Shown: positions 1 through 29,716, numbered from the stretch's first letter. The stretch: DNA of 64,000 nt from a bacterium (GCA_963675755.2 CAXXMD010000003.1:3520001-3584000), one strand, 5' to 3'. The notes: generated from the sequence alone by a model not told the origin. Made by a program: numbers and translations.

Positions 1-96
1 CAAATAAACCAGTCGTCAATATCACAGGACATCGTGAACAGAAAGCTTGTTCCTGAAAACATCAGTTGTGCGATGTGCGGAAAGGAGGAAAATTGA
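1..96 (+). CDS. 5'-truncated ORF ending in a CxxC motif (..ISCAMCGKEEN*)
   Basis: Frame 1 is open from base 1 to TGA at 94-96, which overlaps the TTG start of the next gene. Confidence 0.5.
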   Translation, partial: QINQSSISQDIVNRKLVPENISCAMCGKEEN

Positions 97-359
97 AGAT
101 ACAATGCAGTAAATGTAATAATAAAAAGAAATTCACGATGCCGATGTGGGTGCGTGCAACCTTCCGGTTCAATGAAGACGGCACCATCGCAATTCTGCAT
201 ACCACTCCGCTGGAGAGCATCGAAGAAAAGCTGGTGGGTCAGAGACAGAATCCGATGTTAAAATGCGCGGTATGTGGAGCAGCGGCAGAGATTGAGTTTA
301 ATGAATATGAACAAAAGGATACCGAGGCATCGCAGCTGAAAGCTCTGGAGGTGATATGA
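93..359 (+). CDS. Small Zn-ribbon protein
   Basis: CSKC and CAVC pairs; AGGAGG RBS before TTG at 93; stop overlaps the next ATG (ATGA). Confidence 0.7.
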   Translation: MKIQCSKCNNKKKFTMPMWVRATFRFNEDGTIAILHTTPLESIEEKLVGQRQNPMLKCAVCGAAAEIEFNEYEQKDTEASQLKALEVI

Positions 360-1174
360 GTGAGAATTATAAAAAAGAGATTATGGACTACATCAAAGAT
401 GAAGTGAACAAGTGGATCGATGTCGTCAAAAAGAAATATCCGGACAAGCTCATCACCCGGCAATGGCAGATTCTCTTTCCTAAAGGTTATGTTTCAGGAA
501 ACAACACGATGCCGGTAGTTACGGGTTGCAAAGACGGCAAGTACCTCATCGGTGAAGTGCAGTTTGTACTCCCCACGAACCTGGATTTGTCTTTGGACGA
601 TGTCGAGTTAGTTTTGAAAGAAGAACCCTATGTGGATGTTCGGGATGGTAAAACAGAGTCTGATCAGCATCGTGGTGCGATGGCACTGGATGATTCCATC
701 GATATCTTGAATCACGTTGTATGCAGTATCAATGACTTTATCAACAGTTTAAAGATCACGGTACCGGGTTCTACACAGCTGTCGATGTTTTCAACTCAAG
801 GCTTCGGCATGAAGAGTACAGGCAAAGTTAAAACAGTCATCGGCCAGTCAACAGGTGATATCAAACAGCACATCGAGTCATCTCCTCATCTGCCATCGTG
901 GATCAAGGACATCGAATCCAGAAAGGTCTATGACGAACTCATTGAAAAACTCACCGGTGCGTATCAACAGTATGGCAATGGGGACATTGGTGATTTCTTT
1001 AAAAAGTATGAACAGCACCTCAAGAATCATGGTCACCTGCACTATTTCTGCAAATACAAAGGAAAGATTGTGATTCTGGATGAACGTGAGCATTGCACCG
1101 AATCGTACTGTAGCAAGAAGCCTTACAATTCACCATGCTCTGTGCCTGTGTTAAGATTTGGAGGAGAATCATGA
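356..1174 (+). CDS. Hypothetical protein (272 aa) with a Cys/His-rich C-terminus
   Basis: Long ORF, translationally coupled on both sides; no family recognised. Confidence 0.7.
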   Translation: MSENYKKEIMDYIKDEVNKWIDVVKKKYPDKLITRQWQILFPKGYVSGNNTMPVVTGCKDGKYLIGEVQFVLPTNLDLSLDDVELVLKEEPYVDVRDGKTESDQHRGAMALDDSIDILNHVVCSINDFINSLKITVPGSTQLSMFSTQGFGMKSTGKVKTVIGQSTGDIKQHIESSPHLPSWIKDIESRKVYDELIEKLTGAYQQYGNGDIGDFFKKYEQHLKNHGHLHYFCKYKGKIVILDEREHCTESYCSKKPYNSPCSVPVLRFGGES

Positions 1175-2247
1175 TAAATGTATTCAAAAAGTTTGTACCG
1201 ATGGCCGACAAAATCGTGCCGAGAAGGACCTCGCTGGAGATCCTCCGCAATGTCTGTGTCAGGGATGGTTACATCACTGCAACGGACCTTGACTTGACGA
1301 TAAGAATGAAAACAGACGATTCACGTGAGTACCTGTTACCCATCGGCATTGTAAAAACCGTATTGAAAGCAAAGCCAAGAAGTATTGAAGTTATTACTGA
1401 CATTGCGGGGAAAACACGCATCGACTATGACAACAAATCGGTGTCGTTTCCGGAGGTTGAAATGAATGATTATCCAGCAATGGACTATGGAGAAACAAAG
1501 CCATTGGGAATCTGGACTAAAGATGCCATCAACTGTTTATATCAACAGGTACCCTACTGCAGTGACGATGATCTGCGTCCTGCCTTGCAAGGCGTGTATG
1601 TGAACCAGAACGGCAAGTTTTCTTCCTGTGCCACGGACGGTCATGTGTTGCGATACGTTGCAAATGTAGAGAACCATAATAATAAACTTGTCAAGTTCGA
1701 AGGTATCGTTCCTAAGCGTGTGTTAATGCTGCTGCCCAGGATGGTAAAAGAATCAGTATCCGTGTCTATGTCTGACGAGTGTTATCATTTCATTGTAGAT
1801 GATGAAATCGAACTCATCTCACGCAAAGTCGAGGCAACGTATCCGAACTTTATGCGTCTGTTTCCGGAAGATTACATTGGTATGATATCTCTGGACAAGA
1901 ACCGGTTCCTAAGACTGGCCTACGCAGCAAAGGATTTTGCAGTAAAAAAGACAATGTGCTCTATCCTGGATATCAAAAACAAAGAGATCACAATGTCTGT
2001 GGAGAACGTCGATGTCGGTACAGAATGGCAGTCAGCAATGCCGGTCGAGATGAAAAAAAACAAGCCTATGCGCATCGGGTTCAACATCACCAAGCTGGAA
2101 AAGGTTCTTGGAAGCATCGATAGTGACGTAGCTACATGGAAGTATAACGATGCAAATTCCGCGATGATTGTCATCGATGATGATCACGATGATGTAACCA
2201 GTCTGATCATGCCCATCCGCATCGCCGAAGAGGTGTCAGATGGATAA
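1171..2247 (+). CDS. dnaN: DNA polymerase III beta sliding clamp paralogue
   Basis: ATDLDL, SDDDLRPALQGV, ATDGHVL, YPNF, IGFN and C-terminal LIMPIRI motifs; about 358 aa; GGAG RBS before ATG 1171; not in a dnaA-dnaN-recF context. Confidence 0.85.
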   Translation: MINVFKKFVPMADKIVPRRTSLEILRNVCVRDGYITATDLDLTIRMKTDDSREYLLPIGIVKTVLKAKPRSIEVITDIAGKTRIDYDNKSVSFPEVEMNDYPAMDYGETKPLGIWTKDAINCLYQQVPYCSDDDLRPALQGVYVNQNGKFSSCATDGHVLRYVANVENHNNKLVKFEGIVPKRVLMLLPRMVKESVSVSMSDECYHFIVDDEIELISRKVEATYPNFMRLFPEDYIGMISLDKNRFLRLAYAAKDFAVKKTMCSILDIKNKEITMSVENVDVGTEWQSAMPVEMKKNKPMRIGFNITKLEKVLGSIDSDVATWKYNDANSAMIVIDDDHDDVTSLIMPIRIAEEVSDG

Positions 2248-3022
2248 TGTTATCGTAGATAAACCGGAACGGCTGGATCAGGACATCGAGGACTTCAAGA
2301 TCGATGCAGTTGAGGATGAAAAGAACTTTACGGTAGCCAGACTGCGTGTTTGCCGGGACCCTGAAAAAGAAACTCCGGTGATCTTTTACACCCAGGAGCT
2401 GAACCGGAATTTTAAGGACCCGACGGATCCCATGGGTAAACGATACCTGATTAAAAGCTTTACTCCCTCCAATGCGATGGCTTCCATCGATACATCTCTT
2501 GAACGGAAATTCGGAGATACGATGCTTGCTCACAAACCCAGGATCAGAGACTACTCCCCTCTCACTGACATTCACAGTTCCACGATGAACCTGTTCCTGG
2601 ATGATGAATCTGCAACCTACCTGAGTGACATCGGGGTCAATATCAATGGATTAGGTGAGGATTTTCAATCGATGGAGTCCGTAGAAGCTACACCATACAT
2701 GGAAGATGTATCGATGGGTGCGGAGCAAATCAAGTCAGAGCTGAGACAGTATCAAGTTGAGTTGAGAAAAGTGAAATTGCAAATGGCTGAAGAAATCAAA
2801 GGGTTAGTGGATGTTGATGTTGATGCAGATGATGACGAGTTTAATCAAATTATTGCAATGCATCGGGTATCAGATTATCTGGTTCAGCGGTATCTTGCTG
2901 GTGTAGAACGGATCCATGAATTGAAAACTCAGCTTGGCCAGGCAACGGATGCAGTTTTCTCTGAAACCAAAATCAGGATCAGACTACCGCCGAGATTGAA
3001 CATCGATGGGTTTACACTATGA
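2240..3022 (+). CDS. Hypothetical acidic protein with a coiled-coil C-terminal half
   Basis: 260-aa ORF overlapping the dnaN stop; GAGG RBS. Confidence 0.7.
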   Translation: MDNVIVDKPERLDQDIEDFKIDAVEDEKNFTVARLRVCRDPEKETPVIFYTQELNRNFKDPTDPMGKRYLIKSFTPSNAMASIDTSLERKFGDTMLAHKPRIRDYSPLTDIHSSTMNLFLDDESATYLSDIGVNINGLGEDFQSMESVEATPYMEDVSMGAEQIKSELRQYQVELRKVKLQMAEEIKGLVDVDVDADDDEFNQIIAMHRVSDYLVQRYLAGVERIHELKTQLGQATDAVFSETKIRIRLPPRLNIDGFTL

Positions 3023-3186
3023 CGTCATTGGGCTGTGATTGTATCTTTTAACCAGGTACATATCATGTTGTGAAATGTACCGATGGGTTTGAGGAATCCT
3101 GGGCCGTTAAATAAATGATTGAAGGATCAAACGATACCGGGACGCATATGGGGGATGTGTTCCGGTTAACGATGGAGGTGAAATGA
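3019..3186 (+). pseudogene. Small ORF interrupted by two in-frame TAA stops
   Basis: ATGA overlaps at both ends (3019 and 3183) in one frame; TAA at 3049-3051 and 3112-3114. Confidence 0.4.
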
Positions 3187-3470
3187 TTAAAGTCTATGTC
3201 TATGGCAGGATCGATTTGAGCCATAGGGATGAAAAATCGGAGTATCAATTGATCAGTGCATCACTGGTTGAAAAATTCAAAGACAAAGAAACCGAGTTGC
3301 CTGTTGTTGTAGCTATTTCTAAAAAGGAAAAAGGTAGTGATATCGTGTACTGCGTTCCCCTCGAGGATTATGGTTGTGAAGGTGCTGAGCACTGCGGCTT
3401 GTTCGTTTGGACGCCAGATGAGAGGTTCCTGGGTATGAATCCTTTACCATTACATACAGTTGAAAGGTAA
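3183..3470 (+). CDS. Hypothetical protein (95 aa)
   Basis: GGAGG RBS; followed by a terminator. Confidence 0.65.
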   Translation: MIKVYVYGRIDLSHRDEKSEYQLISASLVEKFKDKETELPVVVAISKKEKGSDIVYCVPLEDYGCEGAEHCGLFVWTPDERFLGMNPLPLHTVER

Positions 3471-3471
3471 G

Positions 3472-3498
3472 AAAAAAGAGGAGTTTTTCCTCTTTTTT
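3472..3498. terminator. Intrinsic terminator, potentially bidirectional
   Basis: AAAAAAGAGGA-GTTTT-TCCTCTTTTTT inverted repeat directly after the stop codon. Confidence 0.75.
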
Positions 3499-3743
3499 AG
3501 CTAAGGTTTTACCTATGCTTTTTTCGAGGTGATATTTTTTGTATGTGGCTGTAATTATTGAACTTGATTTTTTTAAAGCTCGAATTTAGGTATGGATTTT
3601 GTTCGAAAAAAGATATGGTTTTATTAAACAATTTATTACACTTTTTATCATACACGTTTTAAATCCTTTGATAATTAAAACATTCTTAATTATATTATTT
3701 TACCTCAATAAAAATAAAATTTGTTTTCTTATAAAGGACCTTC

Positions 3744-6176
3744 ATGGCAGTCAAGAAATCCGAATTATACAGTTCACTATGGGCCAGTTGTGATGAACTA
3801 CGTGGTGGTATGGATGCAAGCCAGTACAAAGATTATGTGCTGGTTTTGTTGTTTATAAAATATGTAAGTGATAAATATACAGGAATACCTTTCGCTCCAA
3901 TAACAATTCCTCCAGGCGCCAGTTTCAAGGACATGATAGCCCTCAAGGGCAAGCCCTCCATCGGGGATGATATCAATAAAAAGATCATCGAACCTATTGC
4001 AGATGCCAACAAATTATCTGGAATGCCGGACTTTAACGATCCCAACAAACTGGGCAGAGATAAAGAGATGGTTGATCGACTGACTAAGCTAATTGCTATC
4101 TTTGAAAATCCTGCACTGGATTTCAGTAAAAACCGCGCCGAGGGCGATGATATCCTGGGAGACGCATATGAGTACCTTATGCGCAACTTTGCTACAGAAA
4201 GCGGTAAAAGTAAAGGTCAATTCTACACACCTGCTGAAGTAAGCCGTATTATGGCCAAGATCATAGGAATTCATGAAGCCAAAACTACAGGCGACACCAT
4301 AGCTTATGATCCAACCTGCGGATCAGGTTCGCTTCTGCTAAAAGTAGCAGATGAGGCTGAAGCTGCAATATCATTATATGGTCAGGAAAAAGATTCTGCA
4401 ACAGCCGGTTTGGCTCGTATGAATATGATACTTCATGGCAATCCTACTGCTGAAATTAAACAAGGTAATACCCTCGCAAATCCTTTATTTATGAACGATC
4501 AGGGGACCTTGAAAACATTTGATTATGTCGTTGCAAATCCGCCTTTTAGCGATAAAGGTTGGACCAGTGGTGTGGACCCCGAAAGCGATCCACACAATCG
4601 TTTTCATGATTTCTGTACCCCACCCGCCAAGAATGGAGATTACGCGTTTCTTTTGCACATAATCCGCTCTCTGAAAAGCAAAGGCAAAGGTGCATGTATC
4701 CTTCCGCATGGAGTTTTGTTCCGTGGTAATGCCGAAGCGGAAATCCGCAAGAACCTGGTTCAAAAGGGGTATATCAAGGGTATCATTGGTTTACCCGCCA
4801 ACTTGTTTTATGGTACCGGAATACCCGCCTGTATCATTGTAATGGATAAGGAATATGCCGCAAGCCGCAAGGGCATATTTATGATAGATGCCGGCAAAGG
4901 ATTCATGAAAGACGGCAACAAGAACCGTCTGCGCAGTATGGATATACATAAAATTGTAGATGTGTTTAATAAAGTATTAGAAATCGAAAAATACTCGCGC
5001 ATGGTCCCCTTTACCGAGATCGAAGCCAATGAGTATAATTTAAACATACCCCGTTATATCGACAGCCATGAAGAAGAAGATATTCAGGACCTTGAAGCCC
5101 ACTTGCGTGGCGGTATTCCCGTAAGGGATATAGAAAACCTGAATGAGTATTGGCAGGTTTATCCTGACTTGAAAAATGTTCTGTTCAAAGCCAATGGACG
5201 GGAAAGCTATCGGGATCTGAATATACCCAAAGAAGAGATCAAAACCACCATTTTCAACCACCGTGAATTCAAAGCATATAACAAACAAATGAATGAGGTT
5301 TTTGCTCAGTGGCAAACCGAAACAGACCAATATGTTAAAGCATTGGTTAAGGGATTGAAACCCAAACAGGTTATTTTTGACATCTCGGAAAACATTTTAA
5401 AAGCCTATGATAACCGGGCCCTTGTGAGTAAATATAATATGTACCAGCACCTGATGGATTACTGGTCTGAAACCATGCAGGATGACTTGCATGAAATAGC
5501 TGTGGATGGCTGGCAAGCTGGCAAAGAAGTCAAACGTAAATTGAGGGATACAATTAGAGGGAAAAAAGAAGTCACCGGCATTGACGGTCTGGAAGCCCGT
5601 CTCATTCCTCCCATGTTGATCATTCAGGAATACTTTGCAAAAGAACAGCAAGCCATTGACGATTTACAGAGTAAACTGGAAGCCCAGACCGCTGAGATGG
5701 AAGAAATTCGTGAAGAACATGGCGACGAAGAAGGCTTACTCGTTAATGCCTTGGATGATAAAGGTAATATCACCAAAGGCAGTCTAAACAAGGCCATTAA
5801 AGAACTGGGAAAACACATTGATGAAAATGCGGAAGAGTTTGATAGACTGCATGAATATAAAAAACTGATGGATCAGGAAGCCGAAATCAAAGCAGAGATC
5901 AAAAAGGCCTATGAAGAGCTGGAACAATTAGTAGTTGAAAAATATCCTGTGTTGAATATTGATGAAATCAAAACCCTGGTGGTAGACAGAAAATGGATGC
6001 AAGAGCTTGAAAAACGTATCACCACTGAACTGGAAAACATCAGTCACCGCCTGAACCAGCGTATTCGTGAACTGGCAGAACGATATGAAACACCTTTACC
6101 ACAACTTGATGATGAGATAAAAGAACTGACTGAAAAAGTAGAACAGCATTTGAAACAGATGGGTTTGGAATGGTGA
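3744..6176 (+). CDS. hsdM: Type I R-M methyltransferase subunit, long form with a C-terminal coiled-coil extension
   Basis: LWASCDELRG N-terminus, GQFYTP, DPTCGSGSLL (motif I), VANPPF (motif IV, m6A), YNLNIPRYI. Confidence 0.95.
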   Translation: MAVKKSELYSSLWASCDELRGGMDASQYKDYVLVLLFIKYVSDKYTGIPFAPITIPPGASFKDMIALKGKPSIGDDINKKIIEPIADANKLSGMPDFNDPNKLGRDKEMVDRLTKLIAIFENPALDFSKNRAEGDDILGDAYEYLMRNFATESGKSKGQFYTPAEVSRIMAKIIGIHEAKTTGDTIAYDPTCGSGSLLLKVADEAEAAISLYGQEKDSATAGLARMNMILHGNPTAEIKQGNTLANPLFMNDQGTLKTFDYVVANPPFSDKGWTSGVDPESDPHNRFHDFCTPPAKNGDYAFLLHIIRSLKSKGKGACILPHGVLFRGNAEAEIRKNLVQKGYIKGIIGLPANLFYGTGIPACIIVMDKEYAASRKGIFMIDAGKGFMKDGNKNRLRSMDIHKIVDVFNKVLEIEKYSRMVPFTEIEANEYNLNIPRYIDSHEEEDIQDLEAHLRGGIPVRDIENLNEYWQVYPDLKNVLFKANGRESYRDLNIPKEEIKTTIFNHREFKAYNKQMNEVFAQWQTETDQYVKALVKGLKPKQVIFDISENILKAYDNRALVSKYNMYQHLMDYWSETMQDDLHEIAVDGWQAGKEVKRKLRDTIRGKKEVTGIDGLEARLIPPMLIIQEYFAKEQQAIDDLQSKLEAQTAEMEEIREEHGDEEGLLVNALDDKGNITKGSLNKAIKELGKHIDENAEEFDRLHEYKKLMDQEAEIKAEIKKAYEELEQLVVEKYPVLNIDEIKTLVVDRKWMQELEKRITTELENISHRLNQRIRELAERYETPLPQLDDEIKELTEKVEQHLKQMGLEW

Positions 6177-8044
6177 TTGACATGATAATTCAAAATACAG
6201 ATGATTTTAATACAACAGAAATGATAAGTAATTATGACTGGAAATTAGTTAATATTACAGAAGTATTATCCAAAAATAATGGAATTAAAATAGGTCCATT
6301 TGGAAGCCAATTGAAAAGGGAACTTCTAACAACTACTGGTTATAAAGTCTATGGACAAGAAAATGTTTATGAAAATGATTTTGAAATAGGAACTAGATAT
6401 ATTTCTAAAGAACACTTTCAAAAACTTAACTCGTGTGAATTAAATGATGGTGACTTTGTAATCTCTATGATGGGTACAATCGGTAAATGTAGTATAATAC
6501 CTAAAAATTTTGAACCTGGGATAATGGATAGTCATTTAATTAGGTTAAGACTTGATAGTAACAAAATTGACTCTAATTTATTACTACATTTCTTTTCTTC
6601 TAATCATTTGAACAAACAAATTAAAAGATTATCTGTTGGTGGTATTATGGAGGGATTAAGTTCTAAAATAATAAAACAATTGATGATCCCCCTCCCCCCA
6701 ACCAAAGCCGAACAAACCGCCATTGCAACCGCTCTGAGTGATGTTGACGCACTCATCAATAGCCTGGAAAAACTCATTAATAAAAAGAAAGCCATCAAGC
6801 AAGGAGCAATGCAAGAGTTATTGAAACCGAAAGAAGGATGGAAAATAACAACACTTGAGAGTGAAATTGATTTGCTAACAGGCTACCCTTTTCAAAGCAA
6901 TCAATACGTTAATAATGGTATTAGATTGTTAAGATGTTCTAACATCAAAAGAAATTATATAGATTGGAATGAAGATATTACTAAGAGTTGGAGTAAAGTG
7001 ACAAGGGAGCTTGAAAAATATTTATTAAATGAAAGCGATATAGTAATTGCTATGGATGGATCACTTGTTGGTAAAAGCTTTGGACAGATTACTAAAAAAG
7101 ATTTACCATCATTGTTATTGCAACGTGTAGCTAGAATTCGATCAAAAACAATAGATATGAAATACTTGAAAGAATATATTTGTAGTGATTTTTTCACTAA
7201 ATATTGTGATAGCATAAAAACAGCTTCTGCGATACCTCATATTAGCCCCAAAGATATTAATAATTTCACAATAAGCTTTCCATTAGAACTTTCAGAACAA
7301 AAAAAAATAGCAAATACCCTCAATGATATGAATGAAGAAATAATTTTTCTCGAAAAAAAGATTGAAAAACAAAAAATGATCAAACAAGGCATGATGCAAA
7401 ACTTGTTAACGGGGAGGATTCGAATAATACAAGAAACGCCTGTAATTAATAATGTAATTTCAATTGAAGAAGGGAAAAATAATAATCATAATTGGCAATA
7501 TAATGAAGCAGTAGTGATTGCTGTATTAGCTAAAAAATTTGGAACTTATAAATTCCCTTTAACACGATTTAGATATACAAAATTTTCGTATTTATTGCAC
7601 CGATATATGGATGAATCAATTGACAGCTATATGAAAAAAGCTGCTGGTCCGTACAATCCTAAAACCAGATACAAAGGGCCTGAAAAAATTGCTATTCAAA
7701 AAAAATATATTAAAATTCATAAAACCGACAAATCAACTGGCTTTCTTTGTTCAGAAAATATTCCTGAAGCAGAATCTTACTTTGAAAAATGGTATGGAAT
7801 AAAAATATTAGATTGGCTTGAACAATTTCATTATGAAACAAATGATAGTTTAGAACTATTGACTACAGTAGATAAAGCAATACTGGAAATTAAAGAAAAT
7901 CAAGATAACATGAGTGTGAGTTCAGTTAAAAGCATAATCAAGAATTCTGAAGAATGGAAACCTAAATTAGAGCGAACAATATTTTCTGATTTTAATATTG
8001 AGCAAGCAATTCATAAAATCGATCAACTTTTTAGCATTAATTAA
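6170..8044 (+). CDS. hsdS: Type I R-M specificity subunit with an extra C-terminal domain of about 200 aa
   Basis: Two TRDs; conserved IPLPPTKAEQTAIA..LSDVD and EQKKIA..KQGMMQNLLTG segments; ORF continues about 200 aa beyond the usual end. Confidence 0.92.
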   Translation: MVIDMIIQNTDDFNTTEMISNYDWKLVNITEVLSKNNGIKIGPFGSQLKRELLTTTGYKVYGQENVYENDFEIGTRYISKEHFQKLNSCELNDGDFVISMMGTIGKCSIIPKNFEPGIMDSHLIRLRLDSNKIDSNLLLHFFSSNHLNKQIKRLSVGGIMEGLSSKIIKQLMIPLPPTKAEQTAIATALSDVDALINSLEKLINKKKAIKQGAMQELLKPKEGWKITTLESEIDLLTGYPFQSNQYVNNGIRLLRCSNIKRNYIDWNEDITKSWSKVTRELEKYLLNESDIVIAMDGSLVGKSFGQITKKDLPSLLLQRVARIRSKTIDMKYLKEYICSDFFTKYCDSIKTASAIPHISPKDINNFTISFPLELSEQKKIANTLNDMNEEIIFLEKKIEKQKMIKQGMMQNLLTGRIRIIQETPVINNVISIEEGKNNNHNWQYNEAVVIAVLAKKFGTYKFPLTRFRYTKFSYLLHRYMDESIDSYMKKAAGPYNPKTRYKGPEKIAIQKKYIKIHKTDKSTGFLCSENIPEAESYFEKWYGIKILDWLEQFHYETNDSLELLTTVDKAILEIKENQDNMSVSSVKSIIKNSEEWKPKLERTIFSDFNIEQAIHKIDQLFSIN

Positions 8045-8072
8045 TATTTCTATCGGGGAGAATCTTAAAGAT

Positions 8073-8998
8073 ATGAAAAGTTATTACCGGATTATGCTTG
8101 GCGCTAAAAGCATGTATGCGGAAGAGTGCTTTAAAGGTGGCTTTATTGGTGCCGATTATAACATAGATATAGACTTGACAAACAAACTCCCGGATGACTG
8201 GCGTGAATTTAACAAGAAACACCGTCCTATCTGGATGAAAAAAATGGAAATAAAAGCAAAGTGGCCGCCGGTCTTGCATGCGGTATGCTGTGGACCATTG
8301 CCAGAGGGATCGATAAAGGTGATATTGTGATTTCTCCGGATGGTCAGGGAAGTTATTATGTAGGTGAAATTACAGACAACTACTCTTATCACCCAGGTGA
8401 AATATTACCTCATCGCCGATCGGTCAAGTGGTATTCCGGCAATATTAAACGAAAAGAGATGAGTACAGCCCTGCAGCATTCTACAGGATCAATCGGTACT
8501 GTCAGTAATATATCTGATTATGAAGAAGAGATTGAATCGTTGATTGGAGGACATCAACCGTCGGCCATTGTCTCGACAGATGAATCTATCGAAGATCCTT
8601 CTGTCTTTGCTCTTGAAAAACATCTGGAAGATTTTCTGGTGCAGAACTGGAAACATACCAAATTGGGAAAAGAGTATGATATCTATGAAGAAGATGGTGA
8701 ACCAGTTGGGCAGCAATACCCAACCGATACAGGTGCTATTGATATATTACCCATCAGTAAAGACAAGAAAACACTTCTTGTTGTAGAATTAAAAAAAGGC
8801 CGGGTAAGCGATATAGTTGTCGGTCAAATTCAACGGTATATGGGGTACGTAAAAGATGAGCTGGCCGAAAAATCACAAAAGGTTAAAGGTGTAATCATTG
8901 CTCTTGAAGATGATATCAAGATTAAAAGAGCATTATCCGTTACCAATAACATAGAATTTTACAGATATCAGGTGAGCTTCAAACTAATCAAGGGGTGA
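8073..8998 (+). pseudogene. NucS-like PD-(D/E)xK restriction endonuclease split by a frameshift in an A7 run
   Basis: ORFs 8073-8330 and 8261-8998 join into one protein if the run at 8238-8244 is A8 (WMKKNGNKSKVAAGLACG); C-terminal ALEKHLEDFL, IDIL, VVELKK, GQIQRYMG. Confidence 0.75.
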
Positions 8999-9042
8999 AC
9001 AAGATTGATACTGGGTAAAACATGAAAATAATCTAAAGAAGA

Positions 9043-11076
9043 ATGATCACTTTTCTGGAATATTTAAATCAATACAACTCTGGAGATGAAAACATGACTG
9101 TGGATTCTGAGATATTAAAAAGTTTAATTACTCCTAACGGTATCACGATAGGTCAAGTATTTAGTAACAAAAAGCGGTTCTATATTGATATATATCAAAG
9201 GGATTATAAATGGGAAAAAAGTCAGGTCGAAACATTATTAAAAGATATCGAATTGCGATTTAACTTTACAGAGAGACTAGATATTGAATTGAAAAATGTT
9301 TGTGAGGATGTTATAAAGAGATTTAAACCCTATTTTTTAAACACATATTTAACTTGCAGAACTGCTAACAATGTTTCAATTATTGATGGACAACAACGTT
9401 TGACTACCTTATTAATTATTTTTATTCGTTTACAGCAATTAGTATCAGAAATACATAATAATAGAACTTATAATGTAAGAATGGTCAGTATAAAAATGCT
9501 TAATGACCTCATATTTGAAGAAGATGATTTTGGTGATCCCAAATTTTTTAAGATCTATAATGAAAATAGACAAGGTGCATTTCGGGCAATATTGAATGAA
9601 ACAAAAAACGAATACAGACCAGTTGATGAAACCCAAAAAAGGATCATTGATAACTATAATACAATTTCAAAGTATTTTAATGAATTTTTCAAATCTGATT
9701 CAGTTGAAAATGAAATAGATGTGAATAAACTAACATATTATATTTACTATCTGCTTGAAAAACTCAATATTGTAGAAATAAAAATTGAACAACAGGAAAA
9801 TGTTGCAACTATATTTGAAGTGGTAAATGATCGGGGATTAGGATTAAAATCTTATGAAATATTAAAAGGGAAATTGATCGGTAATCTTGAAAACCACAAA
9901 AAAGAAGAAGCAAATAATGTATGGACAGATTTACAAAACCAATATTATAACAGTGTCATTAAAAACAGTACTGAGAACACAATCGATTTAGATACATTTT
10001 TCAAACTTTATTTCAGAGCCAAATTTGCAGATAGTGAAGCAGACTATAAAAAATTTGAAGACAAGTATCATTATGAAATTTATCAAAATAATAAAATATT
10101 GAACTATTTTAACAGATTTGAAGATAACGAATCACTTTATAGTTGGGTAATGAATGAATTTAAATATTTTGCTGAATTGCATTTAAGAATAAGAACAACT
10201 TATGAAAACGAATATCTGATTTATAATAAATTACTTGACCAAAATCAACAGTACCTATTATTATTATCAGCGATCAAGATGAATGATCCTCATGAAAAAG
10301 AAAAAATTAATTTTATTTCCCAAAAATTTGATCAATTTCATACTGTAATTCGATTACTCGATATTTATGAAAGCAATTCTTTCCAAGATTTTATTTACAA
10401 ATTAAATCGTCAAATTAGAAACCAATCAATTGAGAAAATTGAAAAGATTTTTGACCATCTACTTATTGAATATCTCGAACAAGAAAATATCATTGTTCAA
10501 GATACTTATAATACAATTTCAGAATTATTTAAATGGGAGTTATTACAAAATGTTAGACATCGATGGTTAAATTTTTCAAAGTACGTCTTGATGCGAATTG
10601 ATAGATATCTTGGAGAAACACTGGACAAACCTTCATATTGTTTAGAATCTCTTGAAAAGTTGGAAGATCGTTTCAATAAAAATAAACGAAAAATATATGG
10701 AATGCATCTGGAACACATTTATGCTTATAATGAAAAAAATATTGATATTTTTAAAGATGATAAAAATATTTTTGATGAAACTGGATTCAATACTGTCAGG
10801 AATATGTTGGGTATGGTATTATTGTTAAAAGATTCTCAAAACATAAGCAGCAATAATGATATCTATAAATATAAAATGGAAGATTACGCAACAAGCAATA
10901 TCATATGGAATGAACTACTTGTAGGTCATTTTGATTCGGTGGATATAAAACATTTACCGAAAAATCTTAATATTACAAAAATTGATCCAAATGATAACGG
11001 TGTCTTTCCTAAAAACATGGTTGAAACAAGACAAAAAGAATTAGTGGAAATGATAAAACTTATATGGGGTTTCTAA
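9043..11076 (+). CDS. GmrSD-like (DUF262 + DUF1524/HNH) modification-dependent nuclease
   Basis: YQRDYKW, IIDGQQRLTTL, IFEVVNDRG in the N-terminal half; LEHIYA..NMLGMVLLL..N in the C-terminal half. Confidence 0.85.
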   Translation: MITFLEYLNQYNSGDENMTVDSEILKSLITPNGITIGQVFSNKKRFYIDIYQRDYKWEKSQVETLLKDIELRFNFTERLDIELKNVCEDVIKRFKPYFLNTYLTCRTANNVSIIDGQQRLTTLLIIFIRLQQLVSEIHNNRTYNVRMVSIKMLNDLIFEEDDFGDPKFFKIYNENRQGAFRAILNETKNEYRPVDETQKRIIDNYNTISKYFNEFFKSDSVENEIDVNKLTYYIYYLLEKLNIVEIKIEQQENVATIFEVVNDRGLGLKSYEILKGKLIGNLENHKKEEANNVWTDLQNQYYNSVIKNSTENTIDLDTFFKLYFRAKFADSEADYKKFEDKYHYEIYQNNKILNYFNRFEDNESLYSWVMNEFKYFAELHLRIRTTYENEYLIYNKLLDQNQQYLLLLSAIKMNDPHEKEKINFISQKFDQFHTVIRLLDIYESNSFQDFIYKLNRQIRNQSIEKIEKIFDHLLIEYLEQENIIVQDTYNTISELFKWELLQNVRHRWLNFSKYVLMRIDRYLGETLDKPSYCLESLEKLEDRFNKNKRKIYGMHLEHIYAYNEKNIDIFKDDKNIFDETGFNTVRNMLGMVLLLKDSQNISSNNDIYKYKMEDYATSNIIWNELLVGHFDSVDIKHLPKNLNITKIDPNDNGVFPKNMVETRQKELVEMIKLIWGF

Positions 11077-11090
11077 TTTAGAGGGGTCTT

Positions 11091-14000
11091 ATGGTTGGTC
11101 AAATTGAGCGAGTTACTCAGAACCGTGTTATCGAATTATTTGTATCTGAATTGGGGTTTACCTATCTCGGTAACTGGGAAGAACGTCTAAACAACAGCAA
11201 CATCGAACAAGAACATTTAACAAAATATCTTCAAAAAACAGGTTACAGTCAAAACCTCATCAACAGGGCTATACAAATACTCCGCTCAACTGCCAATGAC
11301 TATCAAAAAGATTTATACCACAAAAACAAAAATGTATATAAATTGCTGCGTTACGGTGTCCAGGTCAAGGAAGAGTTGGGTGACAAATACCAGACTGTTG
11401 AACTCATTAACTGGCAGAATCCTGAAAAAAATGATTTTGGCATCGCTGAAGAAGTATCAATTAGTGGAGTAAACAATAAAAGACCTGATCTGGTTTTGTA
11501 TATCAATGGCATTGCGATAGGAGTCATTGAACTCAAACGCAGTACTGTATCCATAGGTGATGGCATCCGGCAGAACATTGCCAATCAGCAAAAAGAGTTT
11601 ATCGAACCATTTTTTACTACCATCCAGTTTATTTTTGCCGGAAATGATACAGAAGGTTTACGATATGGTGCAATTGGTACCCCTGAAAAATATTACCTGA
11701 AATGGAAAGAGGATGTTGAAGATAATACTCGTCTACAACTTGACAAATACCTGCTCAAGATGTGCAACAAAGAGCGTATTATAGAATTGATGTATGACTA
11801 TGTTCTGTTTGACGGTGGTAAGAAAAAGCTCCCCCGCCATCACCAATATTTCGGCATTAAAGCCGCACAGGATCACATCAAACGCTATGAAGGTGGTATT
11901 ATCTGGCACACACAAGGAAGTGGTAAAAGTATCGTTATGGTACTCCTTGCCAGATGGATACTGGAGAATAATCCCAACGCTCGAGTTGCTATTATTACTG
12001 ATCGTGATGAACTCGACAAACAAATCGAACGGGTTTTTAATGACGCAGGTGAGCCCATCAAACGTACTTCAAGCGGTAGGGATTTGATGACCCAGTTAGC
12101 CCAGGCAACCCCGCGATTGTTATGTTCCCTGGTACATAAATTTGGAAAAAGAGATGTAGATAATTTTGAAAAATTCATCAAAGAGTTAGAAAGCCAACCA
12201 TCAAACGCTGTGGGTGAATTGTTTGTTTTTGTTGATGAATGTCACCGTACCCAAAGCGGCAAACTGCACCGCACCATGAAAGCAATGCTGCCCAATGCAG
12301 TGTTTATAGGTTTTACGGGGACCCCCCTTTTGAAACAAGATAAACAAACCAGCCTGGAAGTATTTGGTAAATATATCCACACCTATAAATTCAATGAAGC
12401 GGTTGAAGACGAGGTTGTGCTGGATTTAATATATGAAGCTCGGGATATAGATCAGGCAATAAGCTCCCCTGATCGAATAGATGAATGGTTCGATGTCAAA
12501 ACCCGCGGCTTGAATGATTTTCAAAAAGCAGAACTTCGTAAAAAATGGGGCACCATGCAAAGAGTACTCAGCTCACGCTCCCGTATGGAAAAAATCGTTG
12601 CTGATGTGATATTTGATTTTAGTGTCAAACCCCGCCTCAATTCAGAACGTGGTAATGTTATACTGGTTACTTCCAGTATTTATCAGGCTTGTAGATATTT
12701 TGAGCTCTTTCAACAGACAGAACTCAGAGATAAATGTGCGGTTGTTACCTCCTATAATCCGAATACTCGTGATATTACCAAAGAAGATACCGGCGAAAAT
12801 ACGGAAACAGAAAAAGAACATATTTATAATGTTTATAAAGAGTTACTTGAAAATGTGACAACTAGACCCGGTAAATCTGAAACTGAAACCTATGAAGACC
12901 TGGTTAAACAAAAGTTTGTTGATGAACCTGCCCAGATGAGATTACTGATCGTTGTAGATAAACTATTAACAGGTTTTGATGCTCCCAGCTGCACCTACCT
13001 GTATATTGATAAATCTATGCAGGACCATGGCCTCTTTCAGGCAATCTGTCGTGTAAACCGTCTCGATACTGATGACAAGCAATTCGGTTTTATAGTAGAT
13101 TATAAAGACCTGTTCCGTCAGGTGGAAAACGCCGTCGCAGTTTATACTTCAGAACTCGATTACGATGAATTTGACAAAGAAGACTGTGATATCATGTTAC
13201 AAGACAGGCTGACTGCAGGCCGTGAACGTCTTGAAAATGCCATTGAAGCCCTTGAACTGGTATGTGAACCGGTTGAGAATCCCAAAGGCACACTTGAACA
13301 TATACATTATTTTTGCGGTAATCCTGAAATTCCGGAGGATCTAAAAGCCCGTGAAGTATTTCGCAATGCCTTATATAAAGGCACTGTTTCATTTATAAGG
13401 GCCTATGCAAATATCGCCGACGAAATGGAGCCAGCTGGTTTCTCCACACAACAAATTGAAGAAATTAAACAACGGTTAGACCACTATTTAAAACTCCGAG
13501 AAGAGATAAAAAGAGCCAGCGGTGAGACCCTGGATGTTAAAGCCTATGAAGCGGATATGCGATATTTGATTGATAATTACATACAAGCTAAAGACCCCAG
13601 AAAAATATCGGATTTTGGAGATTTATCACTTGTCGAGCTGATTGTAAATAGTGGAATTGCAGAAGCCTTAAATAGCTTACCCGATGGCATCCGGAGTAAT
13701 CAGGAAGCAGTTGCGGAAACCATTGAGAATAATGTTCGAAGTAAGATTATAAAAGAACATCTGATTGATCCTGCCTTTTTTGAAGAAATGTCAAGACTAT
13801 TAGACAGTATTATCAAAGAAAGGCTTACCAACGCAATAAACTATCAGGAATATCTTAAAAAGATTGCCACATTAATCAAGCTTGTTCATGAAGGAAAGAG
13901 TGATGATGTACCTGAAATTTTGGACACTCCTGCCAAAAGAGCATTATATAATAACCTGAACAATGATGAGGAACTGGCTATAAAAATTGATAAAGCAATC

Positions 14001-20182: not shown

Positions 20183-20295
20183 ACATACTGGGGTAGCTTT
20201 GAAAAATGGTACCTCTTTTCCTCATAATTAATTAGCTTGAGATCTTTTCTGGGTTGATTTATGGGGGGTGGGTTATGGAACCTAAATTCTAAAGA
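20183..20295 (+). repeat. Imperfect direct repeat, copy 1 (partner 26440-26535)
   Basis: Box A CTTTGAAAAA(T)GGTACC; box B ATTTATGGGGGG-N5-TATGGAACCTAAATTCTAAAGA. Confidence 0.85.
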
Positions 20296-20315: not shown

Positions 20316-20423
20316 GGATTTTATATTAAATACATCGTAATGAGCATCGGAGTATCTGAAGCTACGGTTAGAAAATGGATCAGTGGGACTAGATTGGAGC
20401 TGGATAAGTATTTTGGAATTTAA
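20316..20423 (+). pseudogene. Helix-turn-helix gene relic
   Basis: Reads GFYIKYIVMSIGVSEATVRKWISGTRLELDKYFGI*, an HTH recognition-helix pattern; no intact 5' part. Confidence 0.4.
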
Positions 20424-20821
20424 GAGAGCACTACGCTTTCTTTTCTTATACCGAGAAATTTATGATTTATTGTATTGTAATTTTTCAACAATAGGAGAAG
20501 TTGAATATTTGAAATTTGCATGTGGGCTACAGAAGTATATGTTCAATAAAATGTGAGAAATTTTAAAATTGATTGTTTTAATTTTTTACTTGCAATAAAA
20601 AATAATTTTTATAAATTATAACTAATTATTCGAATAATTTAATTATTTTTGCGACATTTTTTTATTTAAATTGTGAAATTAGAAAAATTATTCCGAGAAA
20701 TGGGGATTAGTATAGAAGAAGAGGGAACTGGGGCTAATCAAATATTTCAAGATTATACCTTTCTTTCATCATATTTTTTCTTTTTTCTTGATAAAATCAG
20801 CAAATTTTATTGGAGATGATT

Positions 20822-25348: not shown

Positions 25349-25361
25349 CTGTTGATCTTCC

Positions 25362-26324: not shown

Positions 26325-26439
26325 AAATTTATAAGTATTAAATTGACCTTTGCTTAAAGATCAATTCAAGTATCAAACTCGTTTATTGCGAAGTGTTTTT
26401 TTTAAATCCCCAGTTTCTACAAAAACAACAAAATCCCCA

Positions 26440-26535
26440 ACATACCGGGGGGCCCCTTTGAAAAAGGGTACCCCCATTTGATCTCGTTACCTGGTAATTT
26501 ATGGGGGGCTATGTATGGAACCTAAATTCTAAAGA
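26440..26535 (+). repeat. Imperfect direct repeat, copy 2 (partner 20183-20295)
   Basis: GGGGGGCCCCTTTGAAAAAGGGTACCCCC, then ATTTATGGGGGG-N5-TATGGAACCTAAATTCTAAAGA; box B is 34/39 identical to copy 1 at an offset of 6240 bp. Confidence 0.85.
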
Positions 26536-26855
26536 TTTTCAACCAATCCGGAAACTACGATGTGTTTATAATAAGATGCATCTACAGTTCCTTGTATAAT
26601 TCCCTGAGCAACAGGGAGTGACAAGTCGGTAATCACGCGTTTCCAATTGAATTTATAAGATAGATACCGGACGACATCGGGTGTTACCCAGTAACCAAAG
26701 TCTTTGGATAGCCATTCGGCAGCTTTATACATTCCATTATTTTCACACCATATTTCATATAAGCGATGTTCGCCGTAGTACTCTATCAGCTTATGAGTCA
26801 TCGAGTATGAGGTGTCTCTGGGTTTTCTGGTACTTGGATAATTATGCTTTTTCAT
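26529..26855 (-). CDS. Hypothetical protein, possibly HTH
   Basis: GGAGG RBS before ATG 26855 (MKKHNY..); KAAEWLSKDFGYWVTPDVVRYL looks HTH-like; stop codon lies inside the repeat. Confidence 0.65.
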   Translation of the reverse strand: MKKHNYPSTRKPRDTSYSMTHKLIEYYGEHRLYEIWCENNGMYKAAEWLSKDFGYWVTPDVVRYLSYKFNWKRVITDLSLPVAQGIIQGTVDASYYKHIVVSGLVENL

Positions 26856-27282
26856 TTGGTTCCTCCATCGTTGATGGCAATTCAACACCGTAGTAGTTAA
26901 ATTCTTCTCTTGTTAAGCGATCCTTAAGAAAACCTGCAGCCCAGGACGCGACCTCGTAGAGATTGACATTCAGTTTCAATTTATTTACATCATCAAAGTT
27001 GCCTATTTTTTTGTTTATCTTTTTATATTCTTCACTTGAAGTGAAATATAAATGTAATCGCCTTGTTTCCGGAGTATTGAGGTTTAGTCTCTTACCTAAA
27101 TCTCTAAATTTAGGACCGTTCCATCGCTTGCTGTCTAATATCTCCATGTCAGTTACCCATAGACCGTAGCCCAATTTTCTATTCTCTTCTATTCGGTTTA
27201 GTATTAATCTGAAAATCCTTGAATCTTTTTCATCAAGTTCTTTATATATCTTTGCTATTCTTATTAATGACGTTCTGTCCAT
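26842..27282 (-). CDS. Hypothetical protein (146 aa)
   Basis: GAGG RBS; overlaps the start of the next gene. Confidence 0.65.
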   Translation of the reverse strand: MDRTSLIRIAKIYKELDEKDSRIFRLILNRIEENRKLGYGLWVTDMEILDSKRWNGPKFRDLGKRLNLNTPETRRLHLYFTSSEEYKKINKKIGNFDDVNKLKLNVNLYEVASWAAGFLKDRLTREEFNYYGVELPSTMEEPNEKA

Positions 27283-27299
27283 ATTAAATACCTCATAGG

Positions 27300-27607
27300 T
27301 GGTTTAAAGTTTTAGTTTTTTTGTTTATCTGGCTGTTACCAGGTTTATTTGTTTTTTCATTTTTTTAATTTTGGTTATTTAATAACTATGTTTTTTATTA
27401 TGCTACGCAAAAATTGGCCACCGTGCCACCAAAACCATGTGTTTTTTTAAACTTTTAGTCTGGACTAAAAGTTGTATATTTTTACAAACTCCTCAATATA
27501 CTTTTCAAAAAATACTTGGCACCGTGGCACACCAGCCTATAACCCGTTTAATTACACATCCTTAAAAGGGGCCACCTGTTGATTTTGACCCGTGGCCCCC
27601 GTGGCAC
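27300..27607. other. Putative replication origin: GCCAC iterons in both orientations plus AT-rich tracts
   Basis: TGGCCACCGTGCCACC (27415), TGGCACCGTGGCAC (27517), GGGCCACC (27569), CCCGTGGCCCCCGTGGCAC (27589) at the 3' end of the primase-helicase. Confidence 0.55.
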
Positions 27608-29667
27608 TTTTTACTACGTATTGTGGGTCGATAATCTGGTAGTAAGTATACCTCATCGATCCTTTCTTTACTCTTCCACCATCTTCGATGATCCCCCGTT
27701 TTTTGAGGTTCTTTATCATCGCATTTGGATGCACTCCATTGGTAGCAAACTTTTGTATCAAAGAAAAAACAAGTTTACCCTCTTCGAACAATTCTATCTC
27801 TTCACTGGATGGATTTTTATAATCCCCAAACCAGTCATATATTCTATTATGTTTTTCATGATAATAGTTATAAATCTTTTCCATTACGTAGTCTGTACTG
27901 GCTTCGATGTTGGTCACATTGGATTCAAACAGTTCTTTTTCATATTTTGTAATTGGAACTTCGATGCCGTATCTGGTGTAATTTTTATCAATTTTATCAA
28001 AAACATCTTTGAGTTCTGTTCGAATATAATGTCCAAGTCTCTTTTTCAGCTTTGTAGAAAATGTCCCGTCCCGTTTGACTTTCACGTCCGGCAACTTCCA
28101 CACAAAAAATTGGTTATTAGACCTCATCAGTCGGAAGTTCTGTCTTTTCTACAAAGAGCGGTATCGATTCATTGGATATTAAAATAATATTTAGATTATT
28201 TCTCACCTGGTATTCAGGTTGATATTTTTTATTAACTAGCAGATATTTTTGCCCCGAATACTTTTTAAGAATTTTATACTGAGACTTTTCATTTAACTCA
28301 TTCTCTTCGATGACTGCGAGTTTCTTTTCAGCTTCCGGAGTAAAACTCCCTACGTCACCACGCCAATCGATGTATAAATTGGGAAAGATTGCTCTTACCA
28401 TCTCAGCAAACGTGGTTTTTGATGTACCCCTTGGACCATGTAATATCATCGTAGGTAGCTGGATGTAATTCGTGTATACATACATCGCGAGATATTTTTT
28501 TATAAAGTCTACATGTTTGCCAAAAGTCCGGGAAAGATAGTCATCGATGAAAGCATTGTCCTGAATATCAACCGGCAACGCTGCCTACGGATACTTTTAT
28601 CACGCCATCGTTCAAGTTGACATTATACTGGTCTTTCTCGATGGCTACATCACCTACGTAGTCTACTCTTGCTAGATTTGACAACCTTTTGTTTTCCACG
28701 ATGTATCGTAGTGCGTTTTCCTGCTTTTTCTGATCATTCGCACCAACTAATATATAATAAGCATCTCGTGACGTCTTTGTAGCGTAGAATACACTTTCAT
28801 TGACTCCAAATTCTACGATGTCCCTTTCCGTAGAAATAAAAATCATCTACGACATCGGCTAACCTGATTTCAAAGTTTGAAACATCAGACCCATCCTACG
28901 GAGTCACACGATGAGCAGTAAATCATGTGTTTATCTTGATCTTTTACATAGTCGATGAAAGCCGATGGAGTGTTATCCTCGTGTTCCGGCTTCGGACAGT
29001 AACAAGGTTTTTTAGAAGTAATTTCTGATGCAGTGATACTCTTGCCATTGGCAAGTGTAATCTCCATCGATGGATCAAATTCCCAGTAATTCCGATGGAT
29101 CTTTTTGGAAATTTCTTTTAGGTTCCATGAAGTTTTTATTTCATCTACGTCGAGATAATTGTTATCCAGATTGGAAACACAGATTGAATCATTAGGACTT
29201 GCAAAATAAAACCTGGCCAGATCTCTGGTGCTGGAGTCAATTGAGGGAAAGATTGCAGCAAAGTATCCAAATACAGCTTGATATTTTTCTTTACTTTTTA
29301 GCGGTTTATTAAAAGGTACGATGATGTGGAATCTATCGATAGCGGGTTTATCTTTTTTTACAACTTGGTGAGATTTTGATGTAATCATTACATAGTTTAA
29401 ACCAAGGGAATCGAGTTTATCCTTTGCATCATCGATGGTCAATCCATCATCGATGTCAACGATGTATCCCGAGGCAGATTCAAAATTTTCTGATTTGCGA
29501 TATCTGTTATATATGTCGGTACTATCATCTGTTTTCCAGTTAATTAAACTGTAATTGTGAGACTTTAGTATTTCTTCCAGATTGTTGACTTTAACATTTT
29601 CTGATTTAAATTTAGTTGCTAGACTTGCGTCCTGAGTGGCAGGGGCAATTGAAATTTGTAGATTCAT
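27552..29667 (-). pseudogene. AEP-type primase + Zn finger + SF3/D5-like helicase, split by four +1 frameshifts (about 703 aa if repaired)
   Basis: VDIDDG, TSKSH, RFHIIVPF, DSSTRDLARFYF; CPKPEHEDNTPS..CSSC; HGPRGTSKTTF Walker A, VIEE, ILISN. The 2116-nt span minus 4 nt gives 704 codons. Confidence 0.8.
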
Positions 29668-29716
29668 TAGGCATAAAACCTCCGAAATTTTAAGTTAAAA
29701 TATAAATTAATTATAA

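Follow-up and report, generated by a model that had tools for sequence, protein, structure and literature searches.

Introduction

Short DNA words that are iterated in bacterial DNA are known from several systems. Highly iterated palindrome 1 (HIP1; GCGATCGC) of the cyanobacteria is a palindromic octamer found throughout whole chromosomes with a density of about 1 per kb or lower. The DNA uptake sequences (DUS) of Neisseria and the uptake signal sequences (USS) of Pasteurellaceae are iterated words that are kept by transmission bias, reshape codons and peptides, and form lineage dialects; they are 9-12 nt long, genome-wide, present at about 1 per kb and tied to the competence machinery. Chi words are 5-8 nt long (5 nt in Bacillus subtilis) and their density protects or regulates DNA (RecBCD/AddAB). 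Very-short-patch (VSP) repair, for which CCWGG is the classical Dcm/Vsr signature, has a genome-wide effect and depletes the T-derivative of its word. GATC clusters (Dam/SeqA/MutH; oriC, P1 pac) are dense occurrences of a 4-5 bp word that is read in double-stranded DNA independently of orientation. Here we describe the word CATCG and its reverse complement CGATG in a mobile gene set (the module) and a second block of the same tRNA-Arg genomic island. The stretch of DNA that was analysed, referred to as the window, is 64,000 nucleotides long and corresponds to C3:3520001-3584000 of genome G000 (6.48 Mb; 6,481,216 bases in three contigs). Positions are counted from the first letter of the window, and negative positions lie to its left. 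A sister genome from the same genus, G001, was used for comparison.

The high iteration of CATCG/CGATG is real and is a property of one mobile-element lineage. The word resembles HIP1 in being an exact short word that occurs within coding sequence far above composition and codon expectation, and in that the property is conserved across deep divergence while individual sites turn over. It differs from HIP1 in being an asymmetric 5-mer at ~12/kb that is confined to 6.4 + 3.2 kb of a mobile element; a whole-chromosome distribution is not seen, and no cognate methyltransferase was found in the module. A preliminary description of the window, made from the sequence alone, had likened the word to HIP1, and the likeness holds for an element-specific highly iterated motif but not for the form or the range of the word, as CATCG is a non-palindromic 5-mer that is not genome-wide. 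One report (PMC13756078) links HIP1 to DNA methyltransferases and to DNA transfer.

The length, genome-wide spread, density and competence link of DUS and USS are not seen for CATCG. Chi is host-enriched and orientation-skewed, whereas CATCG is not enriched in the host and has about equal orientations in eight of nine regions. CATCG is like the Dcm/Vsr word in being an exact word of the restriction-modification type that reflects a directional process, and the module of one relative (G128) shows a CCWGG excess; the VSP signature itself is absent, as the host has no CATCG excess and the T-derivatives in the left block are not depleted. GATC clusters cover a few hundred bases at control regions, whereas CATCG is an asymmetric word that spans gene sets. 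Listings from full-text searches of the literature gave no account of a mobile element with a CATCG excess, nor of this module. An iterated word at ~12/kb that is confined to a mobile gene set is different from HIP1, uptake sequences, Chi and Dcm/Vsr. We favour, with a probability of roughly 0.45, element-level selection for a recognition word that is read by proteins of the module.

Abundance of CATCG/CGATG in the island and the genome

CATCG and CGATG were counted together as one strand-symmetric word, and CTACG and CGTAG likewise as a second. The left CATCG-rich block spans -2785..3629 (6,415 bp; window part 1..3629) and holds 79 sites, and the right block (26500..29700) holds 34 CATCG/CGATG and 20 CTACG/CGTAG sites. 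Exact counting gave 22 CATCG and 25 CGATG (47 sites) in positions 1-3200 and 14 and 19 (33 sites) in 26640-29470; together these are 80 of the 135 sites of the window in 9.4% of its length. The block density of ~12/kb corresponds to about one site per 80 bp. The zero-order expectation is 5.2 sites for the left stretch and 3.4 for the right, and dinucleotide-preserving shuffles (n=200) gave 9.2±2.8 (maximum 16) and 4.0±1.9 (maximum 10), respectively. The cargo between the blocks (3700-26400) has 20 sites compared to 20.9±4.6 in the same type of shuffle and is not enriched, and the host DNA at 30000-64000 is mildly depleted (34 sites compared to 55.8±7.0). CTACG is also mildly depleted in this host stretch (9 sites compared to 21.2±4.2). 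The second word is found 19 times in 26640-29470 and four times in 1-3200. A short relic at 20330-20435 contains two CATCG and two CTACG sites.

These values agree with the preliminary description, which had reported about 45 and about 33 sites in the two stretches, about 20 copies of the second word on the right, two sites of each kind in the relic, and only scattered copies in cargo and host. The left stretch that it counted starts at base 1; the enrichment in 1-3200 stands, but the block itself begins at -2785.

The whole genome has 6,894 sites (1.06/kb), and the six 1-kb bins with at least nine sites all lie at the island locus. The host flanks, and the flanks of the modules in relatives, lack the word. 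When all 512 strand-symmetric 5-mers were scanned in every 3-kb window of the genome, the CATCG block was the strongest local 5-mer excess outside tandem or CRISPR-like repeats. The only region that ranks higher is a tandem repeat (G000:C3:339001-342000) in which 46% of the 20-mers are repeated; no repeated 20-mer occurs in either CATCG block. The scan also returned a CRISPR-array-like region with one 20-mer present 21 times (G000:C2:5001-8000), and a region with 15 copies of CTAAG in 3 kb, compared to 0.5 expected from the genome rate, and no repeated 20-mer (G000:C2:2437001-2440000).

Synonymous codons were shuffled within genes or within blocks (n=300) with proteins and codon usage held fixed; gene models were simple open reading frame (ORF) calls with small overlaps. 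Coding sites number 76 in the left block, compared to 31.0±4.4 or 34.2±5.0 in these shuffles, and 34 in the right block, compared to 7.6±2.5 or 8.8±2.4; none of the 300 shuffles reached the observed number in either block. CTACG is significant under this null in the right block only (18 compared to 5.6±2.1). A maximal-order Markov null absorbs much of the signal in CATC and ATCG; it still ranks CATCG as the first 5-mer in the left block (z 4.3) and as the second, after CGTAG, in the right block. Codon usage and a similar ratio in the host were the two ordinary explanations that the preliminary description had allowed for, and the excess stands under the first while the host genome, at 1.06/kb, does not share it.

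Exactness, orientation and coding context of the word

Relative to the host 5-mer frequency, CATCG is present at 11.6x on the left and at 10.7x on the right, whereas all 15 of its one-mismatch neighbours are at 0.3-4.7x. In the right block CGTAG reaches 19.7x. None of the T-derivatives is depleted in the left block (CATTG 1.89x, TATCG 1.81x, CATCA 1.32x), and in the right block CATTG alone is low (0.59x). The positions that flank CATCG show no base preference, and the word is therefore exactly five bases long. The word is asymmetric and non-palindromic; the palindrome CATCGATG accounts for 22 of 225 adjacent pairs in opposite orientation when nine regions (about 48 kb) are pooled.

The preliminary description had seen the motif in both orientations and in several reading frames. 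Both features are borne out: the two orientations are about equal in eight of nine regions (37:42, 43:41, 24:22, 24:19, 24:27, 18:18, 27:25, 14:20), the exception being the right block of G001 (10:27), and three frames are preferred, xxC|ATC|Gxx, xxC|GAT|Gxx and xCG|ATG. The preferred frames are those in which coding tolerates the word. Of the synonymous opportunities, positions at which the word could be written without a change in the protein, 76 of 174 are filled in the left block and 34 of 78 in the right (44%), whereas cargo genes fill 16 of 361 and host genes 28 of 479 (4-6%). Isoleucine codons that are followed by G are found as C|ATC|G in 45 of 86 cases, and 19 of 127 isoleucine codons that are not before G are preceded by a codon ending in C. 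For aspartate, GAT is used 24:1 within the word context and roughly 1:1 to 2:1 elsewhere. The effect is cooperative. Outside genes, nine sites were counted in 2,182 nt of intergenic DNA from six modules (4.1/kb).

A preference of this kind could arise from selection on translation or on the mRNA, in which certain codon pairs, such as a C-ending codon with AUC and a G-starting codon, are favoured. In keeping with codon-pair selection, a single frame accounts for 45 of the 56 coding CATCG sites (left block 30 of 36, right block 15 of 20), and the coding density is above the intergenic density. However, other frames (xCG|ATG, xxC|GAT|G) are just as enriched in the reverse complement and no single codon-pair rule covers them, intergenic sites are still present at about 4/kb, and the host and cargo genes are translated in the same cell and do not show the effect. 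The frame pattern is also what would be expected if the word were placed wherever coding allows. We consider codon-pair selection a highly improbable cause. The results show a real iterated word at the level of double-stranded DNA that is exact, element-restricted and family-wide.

Relatives of the module and turnover of sites

G001 carries the same two kinds of CATCG-rich block. It also has CATCG-rich genes that are missing from G000 (L018:4641-7030 and L024:888-1910; 6-13 sites/kb), which encode an HTH_17 protein, two ClpP/SDH-protease-like proteins and a 340-aa protein; their content suggests a larger ancestral backbone. Further relatives were collected through the sliding clamp that the module encodes (ORF8, below): 35 relatives of the clamp were found at E <= 1e-30, and a metagenome scan gave 30 loci, 29 of which were scanned for words. 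The relatives are not independent of each other. Two scans of viral contigs with the clamp gave no relative. Among the five sequencing runs, all of them sets of contigs, X1 and X3 have the same sequence, and X4 and X5 contain relatives at about 85-90% identity.

The gene order from the recombinase to ORF9 is conserved among the relatives. In the long loci the module is a 6-7-kb stretch of higher guanine plus cytosine (GC) content with unrelated flanks that often carry defence-related genes. CATCG scores highest of all 5-mers in 12 of these 29 loci and ranks within the best four in 19, and the preliminary description's suggestion that relatives of the clamp gene might show the same bias is thereby borne out. 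In the seven most distant loci (clamp 31-38% identical) CATCG is missing from the list of top words except in L050. Synonymous occupancy is 0.44-0.48 in G000 and G001, 0.28-0.39 in the complete or near-complete modules L029, L036, L039, L046 and L027, 0.28 in G128, 0.25 (15/59) in G051 and 0.08-0.14 in L043 and L044. In eight shared genes there are 154-161 opportunities in G000 and G001 and 74-75 in the L043 and L044 orthologues, which indicates that the protein sequences have shifted too. The serine recombinase (L056:251-793; homologues in L027, L029, L036, L039 and L046) is 74-95% identical across relatives, and the other module proteins of these relatives are 40-67% identical. An adjacent copy of the recombinase is absent from L043, G051 and G128, and the copy in L044 lies 4.5 kb away; these four are the lineages with low or intermediate CATCG. 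L043, L044 and G128 also carry an additional gene of 138 aa.

Comparison of the closest pair, G000 and G001, showed that 47 of 79 sites are common (59%), compared to 41-47% for ordinary 5-mers. Of 60 realised sites at opportunities present in both genomes, 45 are kept, although the fourfold-site identity is only 0.60. The differences between the two genomes at CATCG sites are mostly transitions (CATTG 15, TATCG 8 and CATCA 8 of 69). Between G000 and L029 or L039 the fourfold-site identity is 0.31-0.34, which is essentially saturated; 6-9 realised sites are common, and 57-60 of the G000 sites fall at positions that offer no opportunity in the other lineage. Lineages with saturated synonymous sites nevertheless retain an occupancy of 0.28-0.47, mostly at different positions. 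Since occupancy is high where synonymous sites are saturated, the word is not a neutral relic, and a force that creates or retains it has acted separately in these lineages. These comparisons show that a motif-specific directional force has kept the word dense in several module lineages and that neither the host chromosome nor recently acquired cargo is subject to this force.

The same comparisons bear on whether the word is a compositional legacy, that is, the signature of a former host or of a higher-GC ancestor that is slowly ameliorating. The blocks do have a higher GC content than their flanks, and codon usage alone lifts the expectation to about 5/kb. The excess, however, survives the nulls that preserve codon usage, neighbouring words are not enriched, and the 24:1 preference for GAT within the word context is the reverse of a GC effect. 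The retention of sites between G000 and G001 exceeds that of ordinary 5-mers, and the lineages that keep a high occupancy at mostly different positions despite saturation largely refute a legacy, to which we therefore assign only a very slight chance.

Words of other module lineages and possible biased repair

Other lineages of the module prefer other words. In the G128 module (L060, G128:C89 2597-7963) CCWGG fills 32 of 77 opportunities and is present at 6.15/kb compared to 2.15/kb in a sample of the host, while CCGG fills 2 of 88 and is present at 0.37/kb compared to 5.07/kb in a 200-kb host sample. In an unbiased word scan the occupancy of CCAGG was 0.42 in G128 compared to a median of 0.15. 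The pattern in G128 looks like element-specific restriction avoidance plus enrichment. ACCTG is favoured in L044 with a z of only 4.6 under the codon shuffle, and L043 avoids TCGA; CCGTAA in L043 falls outside the leading 6-mers in the same shuffle, and both it and ACCTG are leads only. Compared with CATCG these shifts are weaker and have been tested less, and they hint that the responsible specificity changes between lineages.

A change of word between lineages is one of the observations that would be accounted for by molecular drive, in which motif-directed biased repair converts near-matches in the element's DNA to CATCG with no benefit to the element. The repair would be of the very-short-patch type or another form of mismatch correction, perhaps tied to CAT(m5C)G methylation (m5C, 5-methylcytosine), and would be active during the element's own replication or transfer, with the word building up in the DNA that has been resident longest. 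Clamps orient mismatch repair in many bacteria, and the module encodes its own. Every type of opportunity is saturated, including those that change an amino acid, the word has the exactness of a restriction-modification specificity, the differences between G000 and G001 at the sites are mostly transitions, and the words of other lineages include CCWGG in G128, which avoids CCGG (2/88). In another system, an m5C methyltransferase recognising CAT(m5C)GATG was validated experimentally (10.1101/2024.07.15.603628). On the other hand, a repair activity that acts in trans would enrich the host too, yet the host, although it encodes a C5-methyltransferase and a Vsr, has 1.06 sites/kb and is mildly depleted. 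There is no depletion of the T-derivatives in the left block, with only CATTG low in the right (0.59x), no Vsr, C5-methyltransferase or glycosylase is recognised in the module, and confinement of the repair to the element in cis requires extra assumptions. Biased repair is in our judgement the main rival explanation, though a somewhat unlikely one. The host genes for the Vsr endonuclease and the C5 cytosine methyltransferase lie beside each other at G000:C3:597960-599929.

Organization of the island

The right boundary and attachment site of the island is a tRNA-Arg(TCT) gene on the minus strand (30234..30308; ARAGORN). A 27-mer from its 3' end occurs four times about 49.6 kb leftward, at L001:223-600 (window -19777..-19400), and a tyrosine integrase lies near the left end (L001:2248-3375). 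The locus thus has repeats of the tRNA 3' end at both ends together with an integrase, as in a tRNA-integrated genomic island. The four tandem partial copies of the tRNA-Arg 3' end are spaced 117 bp apart, and the island, with these att-like repeats as its bounds, may be a stack of several integrations. Both CATCG-rich blocks lie within this one island, in agreement with the earlier proposal that the word ties two distant blocks to one element. The GC content of the blocks is 0.43-0.47 (0.48-0.52 in relatives), which is above that of the flanks. A DNA search of positions 1-3600 against plasmid and phage collections gave no match.

The span of the left block is exactly the stretch that aligns to G001 at 84.2% identity in blastn, and its flanks have no homology. 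Its genes encode, in order, a small serine recombinase (Pfam Resolvase and HTH_7), two small hydrophobic proteins, a Cys-rich protein of 173 aa and ORF5-ORF10; the genes within the window are on the plus strand. ORF6 (66..359; 97 aa, 7 sites) is a predicted zinc-ribbon protein with weak zinc-ribbon matches in Pfam and is kept in relatives at 44-91% identity. ORF7 (356..1174; 272 aa, 12 sites) has a Cys-rich C-terminus; Pfam, a PDB profile search (chance-level rows) and an Atlas look-up gave no lead. ORF8 (1135..2247; 13 sites) is a paralogue of the DNA polymerase III beta sliding clamp. Pfam places DNA_pol3_beta_2 and DNA_pol3_beta_3 above cut-off and does not call domain 1, and residues 23-365 align over the full length of PHROG 947 (18-367 of 368), which gives the three-domain architecture of a clamp. 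The host dnaN is located elsewhere and is 25% identical to ORF8. ORF9 (2240..3022; 260 aa, 12 sites) is, apart from the recombinase, the best conserved of the module proteins to which no function is assigned; the PDB profile search gave only chance-level rows and the Atlas look-up no lead. The two Atlas look-ups (ORF7 and ORF9) scored 0.80-0.88. ORF10 (3183..3470; 95 aa) contains no site, and a RadC-like JAB protein is found at the same position in relatives.

The cargo contains Type I hsdM, hsdS and hsdR genes that have PDC-S02 and HEC-06-like genes between them (3744..14138, plus strand; PADLOC), with 0-2 word sites per kb, and among other genes also includes a Gabija/OLD-like ATPase (PADLOC). 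A 39-bp copy of the left edge of the right block (26497-26535) was found by blastn at 20257..20295 with 87% identity, just left of the relic at 20330-20435. This repeat pair flanks a low-GC cassette at roughly 20.3-26.5 kb, as would be expected for an insertion into the backbone. In the right block, two small backbone ORFs of 119 and 146 aa lie on the minus strand at 26529..27282, the first being 82% identical to an ORF of G001. They are followed by three abutting minus-strand ORFs of 92, 153 and 191 aa (27552..28846), the middle one with DUF5906 (Pfam), and by a primase-like N-terminal ORF of 260 aa with 12 sites (28885..29667, minus strand; PHROG 2135, primase, and 1883, helicase). The four ORFs in 27552-29667 look like one primase-helicase gene in pieces.

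Candidate readers of the word

The preliminary description had suggested a search to the left of the window for a methyltransferase gene, and an HsdM-like gene was indeed found there. ORF5 (-824..96, plus strand; 306 aa) has an HsdM-like N-terminal part and a C-terminal CxxC...CxxC zinc ribbon. Pfam N6_Mtase matches residues 142-214 with 30.1 bits (cut-off 20.4), and in a profile search HsdM chains of the PDB match residues 136-213 only. Of the features of the gamma class, motif X (FFxTP) and motif I (DPCCGTG, S-adenosylmethionine binding) are conserved, and the HsdM likeness ends at motif X, motif I and the next helix. Motif IV, [DNS]PP[YFWH], was not found in any module ORF of the five relatives examined. 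The AlphaFold2 (AF2) model of ORF5 (predicted local distance difference test score, pLDDT, 87.8) shows two Rossmann strands followed by the zinc ribbon instead of a seven-stranded fold; it was built from an alignment of 42 sequences, whereas an alignment of 9 sequences gave a pLDDT of 44.7. A Foldseek search with the model gave no PDB match at E <= 0.001. PADLOC returned only weak methyltransferase matches for ORF5 and nothing for nine other proteins (eight module ORFs and the primase-like ORF), and no Vsr, C5-methyltransferase or glycosylase was recognised among the module proteins. An active element-encoded amino-methyltransferase is not supported by the predicted features of ORF5. The idea that the word is the target of an element-encoded modification is thus not supported by this gene, the product of which lacks the catalytic motif and most of the Rossmann fold.

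The ORF5 family has at least 361 proteins. ORF5-like truncated methylase genes are found on plasmids of Paenibacillus, Bacillus and cyanobacteria, among them large ones (NC_017543.1, NZ_AP022983.1 and NC_011738.1; loci L074, L075 and L076). Their neighbours are either a PAPS-reductase-family gene and a Y-family polymerase with YolD, with a serine recombinase a few genes away, or ParAB and a uracil-DNA glycosylase. This neighbourhood suggests that the family belongs to a plasmid DNA-metabolism or establishment context. ORF7 and ORF9 were compared with the Paenibacillus plasmid genes beside the ORF5-like genes and are unrelated to them. Cys-rich or zinc-ribbon features are found in ORF4, ORF5, ORF6 and ORF7, and these four are counted as orthologous in the lineages that carry the bias.

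The primase was another agent named in the preliminary description, and the comparison with G001 makes it unlikely. If the word were the template recognition site of the element primase-helicase, dense priming would occur along the element and the clamp would recruit the host polymerase. Both a clamp and a primase-helicase are indeed encoded by the element, primases recognise short words (3-5 nt), and use on both template strands would explain the equal orientations. The G001 primase-helicase is intact (715 aa, PriCT_1 and DUF5906, 25 sites), but it is not orthologous to that of G000, the best tblastn segment being 22% identical, and the two genomes have equal word density; the same primase is thus not found wherever the word is enriched. 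In G000 the gene is apparently split into four ORFs and the occupancy is nonetheless among the highest, and the roughly 23 kb of cargo between the blocks, which lacks the word, must be replicated too. We know of no such enrichment for phage primase sites, and a priming signal is very unlikely to be the cause.

Proposed selection for a recognition word

The reading that we favour is that the element is selected for a recognition word. The word lies in the vertically inherited core of the tRNA-Arg island, a module of ~ten genes plus the primase-helicase block, and is placed mainly at synonymous and codon-boundary positions. In double-stranded form it would be the recognition site of a sequence-specific DNA-binding or DNA-modifying activity on which the life cycle of the element depends, and a high density of sites would improve its maintenance or transmission. 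ORF4, ORF5, ORF6 and ORF7, the conserved zinc-ribbon proteins of the module, are the likeliest readers and may act beside the element clamp. The cargo would lack the word because its turnover is too fast for sites to build up.

Several observations weigh against element-level selection. The agent is only inferred, and for selection to act on more than 100 sites, each of them weak, there must be a density-dependent benefit, none of which can be named. The intergenic density of 4.1/kb is below the coding density. The module of G051 lacks ORF5 and ORF6 and still has an occupancy of 0.25, while L043 and L044 have orthologues of every module protein (37-60% identity) and reach only 0.08-0.14; since the word is scarce where the genes are present, gene presence is insufficient and a change of specificity must be assumed. 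Relatives show only a modest excess when codons are shuffled within genes (L029 45 compared to 29, z 3.9; L039 52 compared to 27, z 5.9). Other module lineages have preferred words of their own with a comparable shift in occupancy, which fits a fast-changing specificity, as in enzymes of the restriction-modification type, as well as or better than conserved binding proteins. Gains and losses were also assigned by parsimony in five overlapping three-way comparisons within metagenomic clades, on unrooted trees with one ambiguous branch direction in each. This gave 43 gains of CATCG and 67 losses, a balance that would also suit a compositional legacy; among 512 words CATCG ranks 1-3 for losses in all five trios, being first in four, and 2-36 for gains. 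There is thus high turnover, and possibly net loss, in the metagenomic clades.

A bolder version, which we regard as quite unlikely, is that the element inscribes itself. The zinc-ribbon and HsdM-like proteins would form, with the private clamp, a machine for sequence-directed correction or marking that writes its own recognition word into the resident DNA of the element, and the dense backbone would serve as a tag for 'self'. Other module lineages would write CCWGG or ACCTG, which would make the word a programmable dialect of a widespread mobile gene set.

With HIP1, DUS/USS and Chi the signal is a property of whole genomes, whereas here it belongs to a small mobile gene set and is absent from the host. 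The cause should therefore be easier to isolate, there being only about ten candidate genes and some 110 sites. The word separates the vertically inherited backbone from the defence cargo that has been swapped in, without any annotation, and it provides a handle, based on sequence only, for finding members of the module family in metagenomes. Should a reader protein or a modification prove responsible, mobile elements would have in the word a new means of marking or maintaining their DNA; if repair drive is responsible, the word would be a clear case of molecular drive that is confined to an element.

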